NCBI GenBank assembly: GCA_016210805.1
Contig: JACQTL010000179.1
Coordinates: 1-29,514, forward strand
Source of the DNA: Actinomycetota bacterium
GTDB lineage: Bacteria > Actinomycetota > UBA4738 > G016210805
Reading direction: 5' to 3'
DNA: 29,514 bases
How positions within the stretch are numbered: position 1 is the first letter of the stretch; every line of letters begins with the position of its first letter. A model generated the notes under the pieces. That model ran no database searches. It worked only from the letters and a program-made list of their open reading frames with translations, and was not told the origin of the DNA. The translations under genes were made by a program, and so were the position numbers. Positions 305 through 8,233 of this stretch are shown here, piece after piece.

Positions 305-901
305 GTGCCGACGGGGGGAAGCCACGACGGGGGGAAGGACCACGACCAGTCCGACCTGTTCCTGCACGGAAGGCTGCGGGCCGGAGACCGGGAAGCCTTC
401 GAGGAGCTGTACCGGCGCTACGCCCGGCCGGCCTACGGGCTGGCGTACCGGGTGACCGGGCACGACCTGCTCGCTCAGGAGGTCGTGCACGACGCGTTCC
501 TGGCCCTGTGGAGGGCCCCGGAGGCCTACGACCCGGCCCGGGGGGCGTTCCGGACGTTCCTCCTGTCCCTGGTCCACCACCGGGCCGTGGACACGGTCCG
601 GCGGGAGGAGCGCCTCCGCCGCCGCACGGAGCGGGCCCTGAACCTCGAGCCCACCAGGGACGAAGATGTAGCGGAGGGCGTCGTCGAGGAGGCCTGGCTG
701 GCCGGGCGCAGGGAACAGGTCCGCCGGGCCGTCTCCACGTTGCCCCCCGACCAACGGACCGTGCTCGAGATGGCCTACTTCGGGGGGTACACGCAGGCCA
801 GGATCGCCGAGGAGCTCGGCGTCCCGCTCGGCACGGTCAAGACCAGGACGCTCGCGGCGCTCAGGAAGCTCCGCCGGGCGCTCTACGAACGGGAGGCATG
901 A
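305..901 (+). CDS. sigK: ECF sigma-70 factor, SigK-like
   Basis: Region 2 (AQEVVHDAFLALWR, HHRAVDTVRR) and region 4 (YFGGYTQARIAEELGVPLGTVKTR). ATGA overlap with the downstream anti-sigma gene. Confidence 0.88.
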   Translation: MPTGGSHDGGKDHDQSDLFLHGRLRAGDREAFEELYRRYARPAYGLAYRVTGHDLLAQEVVHDAFLALWRAPEAYDPARGAFRTFLLSLVHHRAVDTVRREERLRRRTERALNLEPTRDEDVAEGVVEEAWLAGRREQVRRAVSTLPPDQRTVLEMAYFGGYTQARIAEELGVPLGTVKTRTLAALRKLRRALYEREA

Positions 902-1626
902 CGCTGGACGCTCCGGACCACGACGGCATCGAGGAGCTCCTGGCCGGCTACGCGCTGCAGGCGCTGGAGGGCGAGGACGCGGCGCGGGCCGACCGTCTCC
1001 TCGCCGACCACGTCCCGTCCTGCGTCCGGTGCCGCGAGACCCTGGCGGACCTCCGAGGGCTCACCGGAGAGCTGGCCCTCCTGGCCCCCCCGAGGGAGCC
1101 CCCCGAGACGCTCCTCGCCGCCCTCCGCCGGGAGCTGGCCGAGCCGCCCGTGGTCCGCCGCCGGCCCGTGGCGGCGTGGGTGACCGCCGCGGCCGCCATG
1201 GTCGTCCTCGGGCTCTCCGGCTGGAACGCGATGCTCACCCAGCGGGTGACCCGGGCCGAGGAGTTCCAGTCGGCGATGTCCGAGGCCTTCTTCACCACGG
1301 CCAACCCGGCGTCCCAGACCGTCCAGGTCTCGGCCGAGGCCCAGGCCCCCACCCGCCTGTACCTGGCCTACCTGCCCGACGGCAACCGCATGTATCTCAT
1401 GGGCTCGGGGGTCCCCGATCCCCGCGAGGGCCACGTGTACTGGGTGTGGGGGTTCCGGGATGGGACCTTCGTGCCGATCGGGGCGTTCCTGCCCCACGAC
1501 GGCCTGGTCGTGCTGCGCATCGACGCCGCTCCGGGGGCCTTCGAGGGGATCGTGATCGCCGACGAGCGGGAGGGCCGGATCGGCCGCCTGCCCGGGGACG
1601 AGCGCTGGGCCACCAGGATCGGCTGA
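898..1626 (+). CDS. rskA: Anti-sigma factor, RskA-like, with zinc-binding (ZAS) N-terminus, one TM helix and an extracytoplasmic domain
   Basis: True start is ATG 898 inside track ORF 274..1626. Shows ELLAGYALQAL, HVPSCVRC (Hx3Cx2C), TM segment WVTAAAAMVVLGLSGWN and a C-terminal YWVW...GAF...GIVIADE RskA-type domain. Confidence 0.85.
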   Translation: MTLDAPDHDGIEELLAGYALQALEGEDAARADRLLADHVPSCVRCRETLADLRGLTGELALLAPPREPPETLLAALRRELAEPPVVRRRPVAAWVTAAAAMVVLGLSGWNAMLTQRVTRAEEFQSAMSEAFFTTANPASQTVQVSAEAQAPTRLYLAYLPDGNRMYLMGSGVPDPREGHVYWVWGFRDGTFVPIGAFLPHDGLVVLRIDAAPGAFEGIVIADEREGRIGRLPGDERWATRIG

Positions 1627-1634
1627 CGGGACGG

Positions 1635-3062
1635 TCAGAGGCCGCCCAGGCCCCTGGCCACCAGGAACCCGCCCATCCCCATGATCACGCCGGCGCTCCC
1701 CAGGGAGACCGCTCGGGACGCCGCGCCTCCCAGCCGGCGGCCCAGGGCGTCCCGGGTCCTCACGGCGAGGGTGGCCACCAGGGCCAGCGAGGTGGCCAGC
1801 CCCAGTCCGAAGGCGGCGATCAGCCCCAGGGCCAGGGCTACCCGGTGAGCGGCCACCCCGGCCAGGAGCACGAGCAGGGCGGTCGGCGATGGGAGGAGCC
1901 CGCCGGAGAGCGCGATCGCGGCCAGGCTCCGGCGGGACAGGAGCCCCCGCCCGGTTCCCTCGGGCGGATGCGCGTGGGGGTGGTCGTGGCCGGCGTGGTG
2001 GGGCCGCCAGGCCCGGATCCGGACCACGAGGAGCCACAGGCCGAGACCCACGGCGACCAGGCCGGCGAGCAGGCCGAGCCACGGGTAGACGCGCTCGGCG
2101 GGAACCAGCCGCTCGGCTCCCAGCACGACCGCCCCCAGCACGAGCACGGACGCGGTGTGCATCGTGGCCACGGCCAGCCCCACGGCCACGGCCTGGCCGG
2201 CCCGGCCGCCCGCCCCCACCAGGTAGGCCGCGGTGATCGTCTTGCCGTGGCCGGGGGCCAGGGCGTGGAGGGCCCCGAACCCCGCCGCCAGCAGGATCGA
2301 GAGGACCACCACGCCGGGGCCGAGCTCCGAGCGCGTGACCAGCCCGGCGAACCCGCCGGGCGCCGGTGAGGCCACCGGGGCGGGAGCCGGGGCCACCCGG
2401 TCGCCGCACGGCAGGACGGCCGAACCGTCGCGCTCCTCCTCGGAAGGCGCGAACGAGAACGTGGCCTCGGTCACGTCGGCCGGGTCCTGGAGGAGGTCCT
2501 CGGGGTACGAGCGGAGCCGGTCGCTGGGGCTCTCTACCGGCACGGTCGATCCCGAGAGGGCCACTCCCCCGGCGCCGGCCACGGAGACCTCCCGCCAGCC
2601 GATCAGCTCCGCGAAGTTGCCGTCGGAGTACCTGGCCAGCCCCCGCTCCCCCACCTCGGCCCCGTATCCGACCTCCAGGCGGATCGTGTCCAGCCCCCCC
2701 TGGCCGGGGAGGAGCTCGGCCGATGCGCAGTCGACCCGGAGCCCGACGGGGCGCCCGTCCACGGAGAGCTCCAGGTGTCGCCGGAGCTCGCCGGCCTTGG
2801 TCGTGGCCCAGGCGGCGAGCTCGCCGGGCGAGGCCTTCCCGTCGACGTCCGCGTCCAGGTACGCCATCTCCTGGAAGGCGGGGATCTCGGCGAGGTCCAG
2901 GACGTAACCCACCCGGATCTCCCCGGGGACGACGACCAGCCCGGACGAGGTGTTGACCGTGAAGTTGCCCAGGGGGTGAGCCAGGGCCGCCGGCCCCGGG
3001 GCCAGGAGCACGAGGGCCCCGGCGAGCGTGGCGGCCGCGGCGAGCCGGCGAGGGCTGATCAC
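1635..3062 (-). CDS. RcnA/NiCoT-like nickel/cobalt permease fused to a secreted N-terminal HPLGNF domain
   Basis: Start GTG 3062 overlaps the TPR stop (GTGA). Signal peptide ends ALA-HPLGNFTVN. C-terminal TM domain has GALHALAPGHGKT, a His-rich loop HHAGHDHPHAHP and SGGLLPSPTALLVLL. Confidence 0.82.
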   Translation of the reverse strand: MISPRRLAAAATLAGALVLLAPGPAALAHPLGNFTVNTSSGLVVVPGEIRVGYVLDLAEIPAFQEMAYLDADVDGKASPGELAAWATTKAGELRRHLELSVDGRPVGLRVDCASAELLPGQGGLDTIRLEVGYGAEVGERGLARYSDGNFAELIGWREVSVAGAGGVALSGSTVPVESPSDRLRSYPEDLLQDPADVTEATFSFAPSEEERDGSAVLPCGDRVAPAPAPVASPAPGGFAGLVTRSELGPGVVVLSILLAAGFGALHALAPGHGKTITAAYLVGAGGRAGQAVAVGLAVATMHTASVLVLGAVVLGAERLVPAERVYPWLGLLAGLVAVGLGLWLLVVRIRAWRPHHAGHDHPHAHPPEGTGRGLLSRRSLAAIALSGGLLPSPTALLVLLAGVAAHRVALALGLIAAFGLGLATSLALVATLAVRTRDALGRRLGGAASRAVSLGSAGVIMGMGGFLVARGLGGL

Positions 3063-4399
3063 CGGTCCGTCCCCAGCTCGGCCAGGAGGCGCGCCGCCAC
3101 GGGCGCGTGCAGCACGTGGAAGTGGGGGTTGATGGCCAGGGCCTCCGCCAGCCACCGGCGGGCCAGGGCGTGGCGCCCGGCGGCCAGGGCGATCACGCCG
3201 GCATGGTAGTGGAACGTGGCGTTCCGGTAGCCGAGGCGGAGGGCCTCCCGCGCGAGGGGGAGGGCGGCCTCGGGCCGCCCGGCCGCGTGGAGGGTCCAGG
3301 CCAGGGCGTCGGCCGCGTGCACGCTCGGCCGGCGGGCGTACTCCGCCCGGGCCCGGGACAGCGCGGACCCCAGGTCGGTCCCCCGGTCGGCGTGGAAGAG
3401 CGCGAGCTCGAGGTCGGTGTTGACGCCGTTCGCCTCGGCCAGGCGCTCCTGGACGTCCACCAGGGCGTCCATCCGCGCGGCGAGGTCCTCCCGGCCGGTG
3501 GCCAGGTACAGGTCGGCCAGGGCGATCACGTGCTCGGGCGCGGGAAGCCACTCCACCACGATCCGGTAGCCGCGGATCGCGGCGGCCCGGTGGCCCCGGG
3601 CCGCCGCCCCCCTGGCCAGCCCGGCCCGGGCCGGGACGAAGTCCGGGGCCAGGGCCAGGGCCCCCAGGTACGCCTCCCTGGCCGCGGACAGCTCGCCGGC
3701 GCCCCAGTGGAGCTCGCCTATCTGGTATCCGGCCCAGGCCGCGTCCTCCGGCGCCCCTCCGGCCGAGGAGAGCGCGAGCTCCATGGCAGCGATCGCCCCG
3801 GCCACGTCCCCCTGGAGCTCCCGGGCGTAGGCCACCCGCGCGTACGAGGACAGGTCGGGCCTCAGGTCGACCATGTCCTGATAGGCGGCGAAGGCCTCCC
3901 GGTACCGACCCAGCTCGAGGAGGGCATCCCCGATGACCCCGCGGGCCGCGGCGTCGTGGGGGTTCAGGGCCCGGGCGAGCTCGCCGTGCTCGAGGGCCGT
4001 GGCGAAGTCGTGCCGGGCCAGGGCCAGCACCCCCAGCCCGACGTGGGCGGAGGGATCGTCGTCCGGCCCGAGCTCGAGCGACCGGAGGAGGGCGACCTCT
4101 GCCTTGGAGTAGTAGGAGGGGTCCGCGGTCAGCCGGGCCTGCTGCACGTATGCCAGCCCCAGCGCCGCGTAGGATCGCCAGTCGTCGGGGACGGCCCGGA
4201 GGCGCTGCTGGAGCTGCGACACGAGCCGAGCCGCCGTCCCGGCCCCCAGCACGGGGCCGGCCTCGAGGGGTCCGGCCGGGTCCACACCGACCGGGGGGCG
4301 GACCGGGGGGGTCGGCCGGCCGGCGCCGATCGCGCCCACGCCGAACAGCGTGGCGGAGAGCGCCGCCACCGCCGCCACCCGCCTGGACCTCGTCCCCAT
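3059..4399 (-). CDS. Tetratricopeptide-repeat protein with N-terminal signal/anchor
   Basis: ATG 4399 preceded by GGAGG. Shows a hydrophobic N-terminus and repeated TPR-like helices (ALGLAYVQQAR, GDALLELGRYREAFAAYQ, FHYHAGVIALAAG). This type of gene is usually found beside DUF4331. Confidence 0.85.
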   Translation of the reverse strand: MGTRSRRVAAVAALSATLFGVGAIGAGRPTPPVRPPVGVDPAGPLEAGPVLGAGTAARLVSQLQQRLRAVPDDWRSYAALGLAYVQQARLTADPSYYSKAEVALLRSLELGPDDDPSAHVGLGVLALARHDFATALEHGELARALNPHDAAARGVIGDALLELGRYREAFAAYQDMVDLRPDLSSYARVAYARELQGDVAGAIAAMELALSSAGGAPEDAAWAGYQIGELHWGAGELSAAREAYLGALALAPDFVPARAGLARGAAARGHRAAAIRGYRIVVEWLPAPEHVIALADLYLATGREDLAARMDALVDVQERLAEANGVNTDLELALFHADRGTDLGSALSRARAEYARRPSVHAADALAWTLHAAGRPEAALPLAREALRLGYRNATFHYHAGVIALAAGRHALARRWLAEALAINPHFHVLHAPVAARLLAELGTDR

Positions 4400-4458
4400 C
4401 CCGCCTCCCGGCCGGGGGGTGGGGCGGGTCACCCCCGCCCCACCCGCTCCGCCATCCG

Positions 4459-5859
4459 CTAGATCTGGCCGTGCACCCCGGCGTCGGAGCCGGCGTGCGG
4501 CATGGCCACGTACGGGAACGAGCCCCCGAAGGGGAGGTCGTTCTCGTCCACGCCGTCGGCCAGGTCGTTCGGGTTCCCGACCAGCTCCCCCTCCACGACC
4601 TGCAGGGAGATGTCGATCACGTCGTCGACGAGCCGGCGGCCGTTCGGGTACCCGGCCACGTCGCCGCCGATCACCCCGAGGGGAGAGTGCTCCGCGCAGG
4701 GGCCCTCCTCGCAGGGCGGGATCGACATGTTCAGCCTGAGCATCTCGCCGGGCGTGATCGCGCCGACCTGCGCGTTGCCGGCCAGCGAGTTGAGCCCGTC
4801 GATCCCGGTGACGAACACGGACACCAGGTCGTCCCGAGGGGTGGCCGGCGCCGGGATCCCGTAGACGGCCTCGATCAGCCCCGGGAGCTCCGGGTCGGTC
4901 ACGTACCCCCCGAAGTTGGCCAGGTCCCCGGCTGGCTTCGATCCGTTCCACTTGTCCTTGTCGCCCACCGGGATGACCACCTCGTTCACGAGGGGCATGC
5001 CCAGCCGGGAGACCTGGACGAACGGCCCCGAGAGGTCCTGGGTGCCGTTCGCCTTCTGGACCCGGGTGCTCCGCCGGGAGGCGGTGCTCCAGATCCCGAT
5101 CACGGGGTTCTTCCCGGGGGCCTTGTTCAGCGCCAGCTGGGCCTTGGGGACCTGGATGGCCAGGGTGTTCACGTTGAACCCGGCCAGCGTGTCGTCACCC
5201 GCCTCCGAGAAGTCGGCCCCGTACAGGAGGTCGAAGACTCGGAGGTCCAGGAAGAACGGGTCGTCGGACTGGCCGGCGAACGCCCTGCTCGTGCCGTTCA
5301 TGAAGGGCCGGACCCCCGCGGACATGAGGGCCGCGTAGTTGGGCATCGACGCGGCGCCCACGTAGCTCGGGACCACGGGGGCGTCGTGGAGCAGCAGGAC
5401 CCCCGGCTGCCCCCTCCGGATCCTGGTGAGGTCGTACCTCTGCCGGATCAGGAGGTTGGGGTCGCCGAGCGACGTGACCGGCCCGTTGTTCATGATGAAC
5501 GAGCCGGGGTTCACGTGGATCGTGTCGAACGTGAACCGGTAGGTGATGTCCCACACGGCGTCGCCGTCGTTGTCGACCTTGATGTCGTAGCGGGCGTTCT
5601 CGTCGAACAGGTAGAAGTTCGGGCCTCCGGCCGGCTCCTCGAACGGGATCCAGCTGGAGATGATCGTCACGGTGTTCGGCCTGTCGGGCGAGACGAACGC
5701 GTAGACGTCGGTGTTGTCGACCCGGGGGTCGCCCGCGATGAGCGGCGCCTCCCGGTGGCTCGACGCGCCTCCGGGCGCCGGGCCGAGCCCCGCGAACAGG
5801 CCCGTCCCCAGCGCCAGCGACGCCACCGCCGCGACCGCCGCCCGGCGGGTTCGCTTCAT
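4459..5859 (-). CDS. DUF4331 family secreted protein
   Basis: Signal peptide MKRTRRAAVAAVASLALG, then SSHREAP...DNTDVYAF, GGPNFY.FD...RYDIKVDNDGDA, FAGQSDDPFFLD, QVSRLGMPLVNEV and GYPNGRRLVDDV. RBS GAGGAGAGG upstream; alternative start GTG 5868. Confidence 0.9.
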   Translation of the reverse strand: MKRTRRAAVAAVASLALGTGLFAGLGPAPGGASSHREAPLIAGDPRVDNTDVYAFVSPDRPNTVTIISSWIPFEEPAGGPNFYLFDENARYDIKVDNDGDAVWDITYRFTFDTIHVNPGSFIMNNGPVTSLGDPNLLIRQRYDLTRIRRGQPGVLLLHDAPVVPSYVGAASMPNYAALMSAGVRPFMNGTSRAFAGQSDDPFFLDLRVFDLLYGADFSEAGDDTLAGFNVNTLAIQVPKAQLALNKAPGKNPVIGIWSTASRRSTRVQKANGTQDLSGPFVQVSRLGMPLVNEVVIPVGDKDKWNGSKPAGDLANFGGYVTDPELPGLIEAVYGIPAPATPRDDLVSVFVTGIDGLNSLAGNAQVGAITPGEMLRLNMSIPPCEEGPCAEHSPLGVIGGDVAGYPNGRRLVDDVIDISLQVVEGELVGNPNDLADGVDENDLPFGGSFPYVAMPHAGSDAGVHGQI

Positions 5860-5983: not shown

Positions 5984-6009
5984 TTCGCGGCGGAGGGGCG
6001 ATCGGATCA
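5984..6009 (-). promoter_or_regulatory. Candidate SigK-type ECF promoter for the DUF4331 operon (TGATCC-N16-CGAA)
   Basis: Minus strand reads TGATCC gatcgcccctccgccg CGAA. The ATCC-N16-CGAA core matches the mycobacterial SigK consensus CCATCC-N15-CCGAA as I recall it. The TGA is also the stop codon of the upstream gene, so coincidence is possible. Confidence 0.5.
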
Positions 6010-6678
6010 GCGGTGAGCGCGGGAGGCCCGGAGGAACCCCCAGAACATCACGGCGATCCCTCCGGTCAGGGTGAGGGAGAAGCCCACCAGGATGCCCTTA
6101 GCCGCGAAGGCGGAGCCGCCGGCCACGATCGTCGCGCCGAGGGCGATGAGGAGGGTTCCCCAGAACCGGTCCCGGAGCTCGCGGCGACCCCGCATCCGCC
6201 AGGCCGACCACAGCGTGCCGAGGACCAGGACGGCGTACCCCACGTAGCTGTAGAGCACCCCGAGGCGGTAGGCGTCGCTGGTCGCCCCGAGGACGTCCTT
6301 CCCCGAGGGCAGGTCCTCTCCCAGGGCCCCGACGGCGATCAGGGCGTCGGTGACCCGGGCCACCGCGAAGGCCGTGGCGAACACGAGCACCAGGAAGACG
6401 CCCCAGGCCACCTCCCGCCTGGGGACGAGCAGGAACAGCTCACCCTGGGCCAGGTAGGGAACCGTGAGGACCGCGCCGAGCAGCCAGTACGCCCGGAACT
6501 CCGCGGGGGTCCACCCCGACAGGGCTCCGAGCATGAGGGCCGCCGAGGCGCCGGCGTACATCAGGAGGGCCAGGGCCCAGAAGGCCTGGTGGGGCCGGCG
6601 GCGGGCCAGGAACTGCCGGCCGAGAAGCCCGGCGAAGGCGAGCGAGAAGAGCGCCGAGAGGAGCGGCAGGACCCACAC
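6007..6678 (-). CDS. Hypothetical polytopic membrane protein (about 6-7 TM)
   Basis: 223 aa with repeated hydrophobic segments and GC3-rich codons. Starts 1 nt after the acyl-CoA ligase stop. Confidence 0.8.
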   Translation of the reverse strand: MWVLPLLSALFSLAFAGLLGRQFLARRRPHQAFWALALLMYAGASAALMLGALSGWTPAEFRAYWLLGAVLTVPYLAQGELFLLVPRREVAWGVFLVLVFATAFAVARVTDALIAVGALGEDLPSGKDVLGATSDAYRLGVLYSYVGYAVLVLGTLWSAWRMRGRRELRDRFWGTLLIALGATIVAGGSAFAAKGILVGFSLTLTGGIAVMFWGFLRASRAHR

Positions 6679-6679
6679 G

Positions 6680-8233
6680 TCAGACCTCCTCCCCCCGGCC
6701 CAGGACCTCCTCCCCCCGCAGGGCCCGCCGGAGCAGCTTACCGGTGGCGTGCCTGGGGAGCTCGGGCACGATCTCGACCTCCCGGGGGACCTTGAACCGG
6801 GCCAGGAGCCCGGCGGCGTGGTCGATCAGCTCGTCGGGCGACGCCCGGGCCCCCGGGTGGAGGACCACCGAGACCCTGACCGCCTCGCCGGTCCGCTCGT
6901 CGGGGACCCCGATCGCGGCGGCCTCCGACACCGCCGGATGGCGGAGCAGCGCCTCCTCCACCTCCCGGGGGTACACGTTGAACCCCGAAACGATGACCAG
7001 GTCCTTCTTCCGGTCCACCAGGTACAGATAGCCGTCCTCGTCCCGGTACGCCACGTCCCCCGTGCGGAGCCAGCCGCCCTGGATCGCCCGGGCGGTCTCG
7101 TCCTCCCGGCCCCAGTACCCCAGGAACACGTTCGGGCCCCGGACCACGATCTCCCCGGGATCGCCCTCCTCGACGTCGTCGCCGTCGTCGTCCACCAGGC
7201 GGACCTCCACCCCGGGGAGGGGCAGGCCGATCGAGTCGGGCCGGGCCTCCGGGCCCAGGGCGTTGGTGGTCACGGCGGGCGCCGTCTCGGTCAGGCCGTA
7301 GCCCTCCCAGATCGTGACCCCGTATCGCTCCCGGAACCCCTCCAGGACCTCGCCGGGGAGGGGGGCGGCCCCCGACACCGCGATCCGCACGGACGACAGG
7401 TCCCGCTCCCGTCCGTCATCGAGGGCCAGCCATCCCCGGAACATGGGCGGCGCGCCGAACAGCGCCGTGATCCGGTGGCGCTCCACGAGGTCCAGGGTCC
7501 CGGCAGGGTCGAACCGGGAGCCCGGGTCGTGGGACACGAGCACCGCCGTGGCTCCGTGGCGGATCGTGATCCCCAGGACGACGTTCAGGGCGTAGATGTG
7601 GAACAGGGGCAGCACGAGGAGGACGACGTCTCGCTCCGCCCCGGCCAGGGCGGGGACGGCCTCCATCTGGTCGAGGTTCGACAGCAGGTTGCGGTGCGTG
7701 AGCATGGCGCCCTTGGGGTGGGCCGTCGTCCCGGACGTGTACTGGAGGACGGCCAGGTCGTCGTCGCCCACGGCGACCTCCGGCGCGTCCCCGGCTCGCC
7801 CCAGGGCCTCCTCGAACGACTCGGTCCCCGGAGGGACGGGTGGCCCGGTCACGACCTGGATGCGCTCGAGGCTTTGGAGCCGATCGCGGACGGCGAGCAG
7901 GGCGGACAGGTGGCTCATCCCGACGACCGCCAGCCGGGCACCGGCGTCGGCCAGGATGTAGCCGAGCTCCTCGGAGGTCAGCATCACGTTCAGCGGGACG
8001 GCCACGGCCCCGGCCCGGAAGGCCCCGTGGAGCGCGTAGACGAACTCGGGGACGTTCCCGAGGATGACGGCGACCCGGTCGCCGGGTCGCACCCCTGCGG
8101 ACGCGAAGGCCGCGGCGGCCAGCGAGGCTCGTTCGTCGAGCTCGCGGTACGTGATCGGTCGGTCCCTGAAGACGAGGGCCGGCTTGTCGGGGAGCCGGGT
8201 CGCGGTAAAGGACAGGAGATCCGAGAGGTTCAT
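6680..8233 (-). CDS. fadD: Long-chain acyl-CoA synthetase (AMP-binding family)
   Basis: YTSGTTAHPKG AMP-binding motif, EGYGLTET, LRTGD, DRKKDLVIVSGFNVYPREVEE and a C-terminal GK motif. Confidence 0.92.
   Translation of the reverse strand: MNLSDLLSFTATRLPDKPALVFRDRPITYRELDERASLAAAAFASAGVRPGDRVAVILGNVPEFVYALHGAFRAGAVAVPLNVMLTSEELGYILADAGARLAVVGMSHLSALLAVRDRLQSLERIQVVTGPPVPPGTESFEEALGRAGDAPEVAVGDDDLAVLQYTSGTTAHPKGAMLTHRNLLSNLDQMEAVPALAGAERDVVLLVLPLFHIYALNVVLGITIRHGATAVLVSHDPGSRFDPAGTLDLVERHRITALFGAPPMFRGWLALDDGRERDLSSVRIAVSGAAPLPGEVLEGFRERYGVTIWEGYGLTETAPAVTTNALGPEARPDSIGLPLPGVEVRLVDDDGDDVEEGDPGEIVVRGPNVFLGYWGREDETARAIQGGWLRTGDVAYRDEDGYLYLVDRKKDLVIVSGFNVYPREVEEALLRHPAVSEAAAIGVPDERTGEAVRVSVVLHPGARASPDELIDHAAGLLARFKVPREVEIVPELPRHATGKLLRRALRGEEVLGRGEEV

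Follow-up and report, generated by a model that had tools for sequence, protein, structure and literature searches.

We analysed a 29,514-nucleotide stretch of DNA (the window), contig JACQTL010000179.1, positions 1 to 29,514, from an Actinomycetota bacterium whose assembly (GCA_016210805.1) is 84% complete and consists of 413 contigs. The G+C content of the window DNA is ~70-78%, and its nearest named homologues and loci come from uncultured Actinomycetota. The segment 1635-5859 is occupied exactly by three minus-strand genes, which encode a protein of the DUF4331 family, a tetratricopeptide repeat (TPR) protein and a permease (Table 1). The GTG start codon of the permease gene (3062-3060) overlaps the TGA stop codon of the TPR gene (3061-3059) in the sequence GTGA. 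In an initial annotation of the window the DUF4331 protein had been proposed to capture metal outside the cell, the TPR protein to serve as an adaptor and the permease to move the metal. The coordinates, motifs and GTGA overlap on which that proposal was built were all verified on the sequence.

The most conspicuous feature of the operon is a histidine at the predicted mature N-terminus of each of its two exported parts. Cleavage sites were placed by the (-3,-1) rule and by the point where conservation begins; they are marked by a slash below. When the 120 nearest DUF4331 homologues (59-73% identity) were compared, A/SSHREAP stood directly after a variable signal peptide in 119, and one homologue had SSHREAA. 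The permease histidine, encoded by CAC at 2978-2976 directly after ...ALA, starts the sequence AxA/HPLGNF in 119/120 homologues (48-59% identity; one has HPLCNF), and His1 is present in all 120. By this comparison both N-terminal histidines are conserved far beyond chance. The conservation supports the claim that both exported parts would expose a histidine at their predicted mature ends.

Table 1. Features of the operon and of the adjacent sigma/anti-sigma gene pair
Feature	Position	Strand	Description or basis
DUF4331 gene	4459-5859	-	466 aa; predicted signal peptide residues 1-32; PF14224
Ser33-Ser34-His35 codons, predicted mature N-terminus	5755-5763	-	read from sequence; directly after ...PGGA
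TPR protein gene	3059-4399	-	446 aa; GGGAGG upstream; Pfam TPR families
Permease gene	1635-3062	-	475 aa; GTG start
Permease predicted signal peptide, residues 1-28	2979-3062	-	ends ALA; sequence and hydropathy
Permease outer domain, residues 29-245	2328-2978	-	217 residues; starts at His29, predicted mature residue 1
Permease membrane domain, residues 246-475	1635-2327	-	NicO PF03824; six predicted transmembrane segments
HALAPGHGK, permease residues 266-274	2241-2267	-	sequence
Permease His-rich loop	1968-2000	-	6 His within residues 355-365; sequence
Candidate extracytoplasmic function (ECF)-type promoter, GATCCG-N16-GCGAAG	5984-6008	-	alignment among close relatives; ~125 nt upstream of DUF4331 start
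ECF sigma factor gene, SigK-like	305-901	+	Sigma70_r2 and r4_2; convergent with operon
RskA-type membrane anti-sigma factor gene	898-1626	+	RskA_C PF10099; H-x3-C-x2-C motif

The exported proteins

The DUF4331 protein matches PF14224 with an E-value of 2.7e-155 and 518 bits (cut-off 27). Residues 33-454 align with profile positions 1-421, Ser33 being profile position 1. Searches with E up to 0.001 found 6,152 clusters of the family at 50% identity. In ~131 of 150 representatives of such clusters the motif [S/A/T]-S-H-x-[E/D]-A-P follows the signal peptide or the initiator Met. Five of those representatives begin with Met-Ser-Ser-His and have no signal peptide; removal of the initiator Met would yield the same end. 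The representatives that lack the motif are mostly fragments, two have SNH or SQH, and approximately four are full-length proteins without the histidine. Ala occupies position -1 in 118/119 close homologues and in 109/123 representatives, and position -3 holds a small or aliphatic residue, in line with the signal-peptidase rule. The only invariant positions of mature DUF4331 in an alignment of 134 sequences were H3, P7 and D19. The initial annotation had named a non-conserved histidine as evidence against its proposal; His3 is invariant in this alignment, and about four of the 150 representatives are full-length proteins without the residue.

Xaa-Xaa-His N-termini are amino-terminal Cu(II)- and Ni(II)-binding (ATCUN) sites. 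Examples are the Asp-Ala-His end of serum albumin and the Met-Asp-His end of human Ctr1, where the site lies outside the cell, at the start of an uptake pathway. DUF4331 resembles these proteins in that its histidine is the third residue of the predicted free N-terminus, and its residue 2 is Ser, not Pro, which fits the sequence rule for ATCUN sites. The mature protein is predicted to start with Ser-Ser-His; the free alpha-amino group of an ATCUN-type site would require cleavage exactly before Ser33. Unlike in albumin and Ctr1, this end tips a 434-residue folded bacterial protein, the REAP residues that follow are conserved as well, and metal binding is predicted. The idea that the N-terminal Ser is a nucleophile was rejected because position 1 is Ala in some homologues.

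The signal peptide of the window DUF4331 contains TRRAAV. An n-region of this RR type was found in only 34/119 close homologues and 15/123 representatives, so export by the Sec pathway is more likely, and twin-arginine (Tat) export is disfavoured. DUF4331 copies without a signal peptide, which begin with Met-Ser-Ser-His, were seen in other genomes. One, on a metagenome contig (L086:2538-4694), is flanked by two genes: the first encodes a mini-protein of 97 aa that has a textbook twin-arginine signal (SRRTFL), the second a cytoplasmic protein of 107 aa that ends in KHDHHH. In Rugosimonospora a signal-less copy (L041:1670-3073) occurs in the same genome as a Sec-type operon copy.

An AlphaFold2 model of DUF4331 made from a diverse alignment had a mean predicted local distance difference test score (pLDDT) of 95.6 and a predicted template modelling score of 0.94. 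The model shows a beta-sandwich core with helical additions; confidence is slightly lower over residues 1-10 (mean 84). Foldseek comparison with the PDB gave no convincing solved relative (best E 0.012), and the best match in a wide VIA search was a generic beta-sandwich in Sas6 (Z 7.7). Among the clusters of the AlphaFold database it matched only other DUF4331 entries. PDB sequence searches with DUF4331 and with the permease returned nothing meaningful. The initial annotation had described the family as one without known function; in agreement with this, our literature search found no publication naming DUF4331 or PF14224. The DNDGDA loop of DUF4331 may, like a loop in the outer domain of the permease, hold a calcium site.

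The permease consists of a signal peptide, an outer domain and a membrane domain. In the membrane domain the match to NicO PF03824 (33.3 bits, cut-off 27.7) covers residues 255-359 only, corresponding to profile positions 4-115 of 287. The domain matched NicO only, with no match to the HupE/UreJ-2 family (PF13795). The best NCBIfam model was the RcnA-type PRK10019, with 69.5 bits against a cut-off of 195. Judged by these scores, the permease is RcnA-like and not an RcnA orthologue. The hydropathy profile indicates a signal peptide and six transmembrane (TM) segments; the His-rich loop connects the third and fourth of these. The N-terminal domain is predicted to lie outside, which would place this loop in the cytoplasm. 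The HxxxPGHGK motif is present in all 120 permease homologues and is followed by the His-rich loop. The protein has conserved membrane histidines and none of the Cys pairs found in its DsbD/CcdA-type relatives.

Like RcnA of Escherichia coli, the permease has six predicted TM segments, the first of which carries an HxxxPGHxK motif, while a cytoplasmic loop rich in His joins TM3 to TM4; a periplasmic accessory protein, RcnB in E. coli, is a further common feature. The permease differs from RcnA in carrying an extra fused domain that starts with His1 and in scoring far below the PRK10019 cut-off, and the accessory proteins of the window are unrelated to RcnB. The initial annotation had called the permease RcnA/NiCoT-like. 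Membership of the NicO/RcnA family, the histidine motif and the His-rich loop support the first half of this name; HALxPGHGK points to the 6-TM RcnA type and not to the 8-TM NiCoT importers of the second half. RcnA, the one member of that type known to be characterised, is an exporter, so transport by the window permease could run in either direction.

Permease residues 29-245 matched no Pfam family even at E 10. The AlphaFold2 model of this outer domain (pLDDT 87.5) had its best PDB match in 9GCE, the structure with bound copper of Ang-1, an anglerase domain that belongs to a HupE/UreJ-2 permease. The Foldseek comparison gave E 1.3e-5, probability 1.00 and TM-scores of 0.40/0.50. In the VIA comparison 9GCE was the sole chain above Z 8 (Z 9.0, root-mean-square deviation 4.2 over 140 of 168 residues), followed by ZrgA (Z 7.3) and PA4063 (Z 6.3). 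A profile of the 120 permease homologues searched against PDB sequences found no Ang-1 chain at E up to 10; its only matches, to CcdA and EF-hand proteins, were marginal. The models thus suggest an anglerase-like beta-sandwich with moderate similarity to 9GCE. Residues 70-81 (2820-2855, minus strand) form a canonical EF-hand-like 12-residue loop, DADVDGKASPGE, which gave the marginal profile matches to calcium-binding proteins; a calcium site may be present.

In Ang-1 and Ang-2, His1 serves to bind Cu2+ and Ni2+, and the dissociation constant (Kd) is ~60-220 nM; anglerases were proposed to fish metal for the fused permease, and ZrgA is the nearest structural neighbour of Ang-1 (PMC12537917). 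ZrgA of Vibrio cholerae (PMC9820375) and PA4063 of Pseudomonas aeruginosa (PMC8561739) are periplasmic zinc-binding proteins of zinc-uptake operons. The window permease shares with Ang-1 an invariant His1 directly behind the signal peptide, the fusion of an outward-facing beta-sandwich to a nickel-type permease and the role proposed for the outer domain, namely capture of Cu or Ni for delivery to the permease. The two proteins differ in the membrane part (6-TM NicO/RcnA type versus HupE/UreJ-2), and the profile search of PDB sequences showed no match between them. The outer domain of the window protein is also longer, with the EF-hand-like loop, and its gene is always accompanied by those of DUF4331 and the TPR protein, neither of which is mentioned in the anglerase paper (PMC12537917). 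ZrgA and PA4063, the second and third structural matches, likewise bind metal in the envelope and cooperate with importers; unlike the permease domain they are separate soluble proteins, they serve ABC transporters, and they bind zinc through His-rich loops and not through His1.

The initial annotation had implied ATCUN ends for both exported parts. This stands for the Xaa-Xaa-His sequence of DUF4331 and not for the permease, whose histidine, as predicted residue 1, corresponds to a histidine-brace or anglerase arrangement. Taking fold and motifs together, the most fitting description of the protein is an anglerase-like domain joined to a permease of another family.

Conservation and control of the operon

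Eighty actinobacterial loci were found with a 29-sequence DUF4331 alignment, and their six-frame open reading frames (ORFs) were searched with profiles of each part of the operon. The Ser-Ser-His motif was present in 80/80 of these loci, including second copies. Sixty-eight loci with at least 3.3 kb downstream were taken as informative. DUF4331, the TPR protein and the fused permease occurred together in 63 of them, mostly in the same order; the three genes form a conserved unit. Five of the 63 had another arrangement, and in three the parts were assigned manually within merged or frameshifted ORFs. The TPR gene lay next to DUF4331 in 67/68 informative loci.

Outside Actinomycetota most contigs were too short for their neighbouring genes to be read. 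One low-GC contig carries DUF4331, the TPR gene and then an overlapping gene for a protein with a signal peptide and the sequence AFA/HPMGNF. Another has DUF4331 and the TPR gene and no transporter nearby, and a further one has DUF4331 with neither. From these occurrences the DUF4331-TPR pair looks like the core of the module, to which the His1 permease is a frequent but not obligatory addition. Two other arrangements outside Actinomycetota were a gene for a DUF4394/FG-GAP protein preceding DUF4331-TPR (L093:5234-6928) and an ECF sigma factor fragment divergently upstream of a DUF4331-FlgD_ig fusion (L090:1-283).

The TPR protein matches several Pfam TPR families. The hydropathy profile shows a single N-terminal hydrophobic segment (residues 8-26), followed by a Pro-rich linker and the repeats; from this order of elements the protein is probably tethered to the membrane and faces outwards. 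The TPR proteins of these loci form a distinct orthologous family with 52-65% identity. A complex prediction for mature DUF4331 and the TPR protein, both entered as alignments, gave no answer (score 0.00); this run, made without controls, speaks neither for nor against binding.

The sequence ATCC-N16-CGAA precedes the SSH codon by 60-400 nt in 41/80 loci, compared with 0.028 expected per 340 bp. The spacer between the ATCC and CGAA cores is almost always 16 nt, and their distance to DUF4331 is constant. A looser form of the pattern had two matches in the window, with 0.44 expected. This two-box motif appears to resemble mycobacterial SigK promoters, and it fits the neighbouring SigK/RskA-like gene pair. 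Upstream of the sigma factor gene of the window no promoter motif was found, so autoregulation of the sigma factor is not supported in the window.

The sigma factor scored below the cut-offs of its two best NCBIfam models, PRK12519 (142 bits, cut-off 222) and SigK PRK09646 (135 bits, cut-off 226). Its gene overlaps that of the anti-sigma factor at 898-901, and the anti-sigma factor matches RskA_C PF10099 with 43.4 bits (cut-off 29.4). A homologous sigma factor gene lies within 8 kb in 30/80 loci, in two arrangements: in the closest relatives it is convergent with the operon, and in Streptomyces it is divergent and directly upstream of DUF4331. The anti-sigma gene is conserved beside it in the closest loci. 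The pair is reminiscent of SigK-RskA of Mycobacterium tuberculosis (PMC7509140), in that the sigma factor best matches SigK-type models and the anti-sigma factor has the RskA_C domain. It differs from SigK-RskA in that the sigma factor falls below the subfamily cut-offs and in that the known regulon (mpt70/mpt83) is unrelated to DUF4331. As judged from motif and gene neighbourhood, the operon probably is an ECF regulon switched on by the neighbouring SigK-like sigma factor.

Metal handling and alternative explanations

We consider it likely that the module handles a transition metal of the nickel/copper type in the cell envelope, so the metal-handling interpretation of the initial annotation is partly supported. 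The version that we favour, although tentatively (probability about 0.45), is capture and import, with nickel as the likeliest cargo. In this version DUF4331 would be exported and cleavage of its signal peptide would bare NH2-Ser-Ser-His, whose ATCUN-type arrangement can bind Ni(II) or Cu(II). The membrane-tethered TPR protein would hold DUF4331 at the cell surface, and the permease would bring its own outward metal-catching domain with a His1 start and an anglerase-like fold. Metal could then be handed between the two histidine tips and pass through the NicO/RcnA-type channel with its lining of conserved histidines and its cytoplasmic His-rich loop.

Import of nickel agrees with the contents of the source genome. 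It has a nickel superoxide dismutase (Ni-SOD) gene (contig C325:4460-4840, plus strand; L089), and the window permease is its sole NicO-family match. The 84% of the genome that is represented contained no match to CbiM, HupE/UreJ or HupE/UreJ-2; ABC-type nickel importers were not assessed. The Ni-SOD gene and the sole NicO permease favour nickel import weakly, because the genome is incomplete.

Several points weigh against capture and import. Among characterised proteins, RcnA, an exporter, is closest to the membrane domain. ATCUN sites bind Cu(II) very tightly, so handing Cu(II) over to the weaker His1 site (~1e-7 M) and on to the permease would be uphill; a relay between DUF4331 and the permease is plausible for Ni(II) only. 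The size of DUF4331 (434 mature residues), its conservation and its invariant Asp, Asn and Arg residues suggest more than a carrier of one ion would need. The context of the signal-less DUF4331 copies suggests export of a folded, perhaps metal-loaded, protein, and on two longer contigs outside Actinomycetota there was no transporter beside DUF4331. Finally, every functional step of the scheme, from the cleavage sites and metal binding to the identity of the metal, the protein contacts and the direction of transport, is itself a prediction.

The RcnA-like domain, the tight ATCUN site and the signal-less copies all oppose a simple uptake relay, and for this reason DUF4331 as the recipient of the metal is a serious rival, even if we regard it as somewhat unlikely. 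DUF4331 would then be a client metalloprotein or enzyme with a metal centre that includes Ser-Ser-His: the permease would export metal, its His1 domain would receive it, and the TPR protein would help its insertion into DUF4331 exported unfolded by the Sec pathway. Metal would flow downhill, from the weaker His1 site (Kd of Ang-1 ~1e-7 M) to the tighter ATCUN site, through a membrane domain whose closest model is the RcnA exporter. DUF4331 itself looks enzyme-like, being large, 40-50% identical across distant clusters and rich in invariant polar residues (many Asp, Asn and Arg, and a DNDGD loop). The Met-Ser-Ser-His copies beside the Tat-signal mini-protein and the KHDHHH protein would fit loading before folded export, and the occurrence of signal-less and Sec-type copies in one genome points the same way. 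Such loading is, however, at odds with the closest structural relatives of the outer domain (Ang-1, ZrgA and PA4063), which are all linked to uptake, and the fold searches with DUF4331 offered no catalytic fold or activity that could be proposed. Scavenger and recipient are the two roles of DUF4331 that the data leave in play. A more specific form of the recipient role, which we find doubtful, is that DUF4331 is a new extracytoplasmic metalloprotein, possibly an enzyme, whose cofactor site is an ATCUN-type hook formed by the processed N-terminus, comparable in principle to the N-terminal nickel hook of Ni-SOD. Two dedicated loading routes would exist: in the cytoplasm, with a small partner that bears the signal then carrying the protein through the Tat pathway, or, as in the window, outside the cell after Sec export, by the His1 NicO-type permease and the TPR protein as assembly factor.

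Two further explanations seem to us improbable. The operon could be a resistance module, in which metal stress in the envelope activates the ECF sigma factor, the RcnA-like permease expels Ni/Co and DUF4331 buffers metal outside in the manner of RcnB or CusF. Similarity of the permease to RcnA, control by an ECF sigma factor as in CnrH-type nickel/cobalt resistance and an ATCUN site tight enough for sequestration would suit this role. A 47-kDa protein per ion is nevertheless a poor buffer, the His1 capture domain resembles uptake proteins, and the Pfam-labelled neighbourhoods of DUF4331 contained no efflux genes of the resistance-nodulation-division, cation diffusion facilitator or P-type classes. 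We give equally little credence to a system without transition metal, with DUF4331 as an envelope enzyme or structural protein and the permease moving another cargo; the conserved heptapeptide would serve another purpose, for instance by providing a nucleophilic Ser, a peptide that docks in the groove of the TPR protein or a portion of a Ca2+ site. It is true that the whole SSHREAP heptapeptide is conserved and not just its histidine, that DxDxDG-like loops occur in DUF4331 (DNDGDA) and in the outer domain of the permease, and that TPR grooves often bind terminal peptides. On the other side, Ala at position 1 of some homologues excludes the nucleophile while His3 is invariant, and the permease has conserved membrane histidines and lacks Cys pairs of the DsbD/CcdA type. 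The matches from the DUF4331 fold searches included no N-terminal nucleophile (Ntn) hydrolase, although such lists do not rule one out.

The match of the outer domain to Ang-1, the co-occurrence of the three genes, the ECF-type promoter and the lack of a solved structural relative of DUF4331 are new here. A metal-capture domain in the envelope combined with a permease is a known principle; DUF4331 and its TPR partner add two unstudied components to it, the former from a very large family on which we found no published study. If capture and import is correct, the anglerase principle extends to a second permease family and bacterial metal trafficking gains these two proteins as components. The Ser-Ser-His end, the TPR partner, the His-tipped permease and the sigma factor together make a bench-testable hypothesis on how soil and groundwater bacteria acquire or deploy nickel or copper.

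A membrane protein gene upstream of the operon

Directly upstream of DUF4331, at 6007-6678 on the minus strand, lies a gene for a 223-aa multi-pass membrane protein without a Pfam or NCBIfam family. Because the promoter motif sits at its 3' end, this gene is probably part of the transcript upstream. An acyl-CoA-synthetase-like gene (6680-8233) ends right where it starts, and the membrane protein gene is kept at the same place in the six closest loci (L002, L006, L011, L022, L030 and L035).

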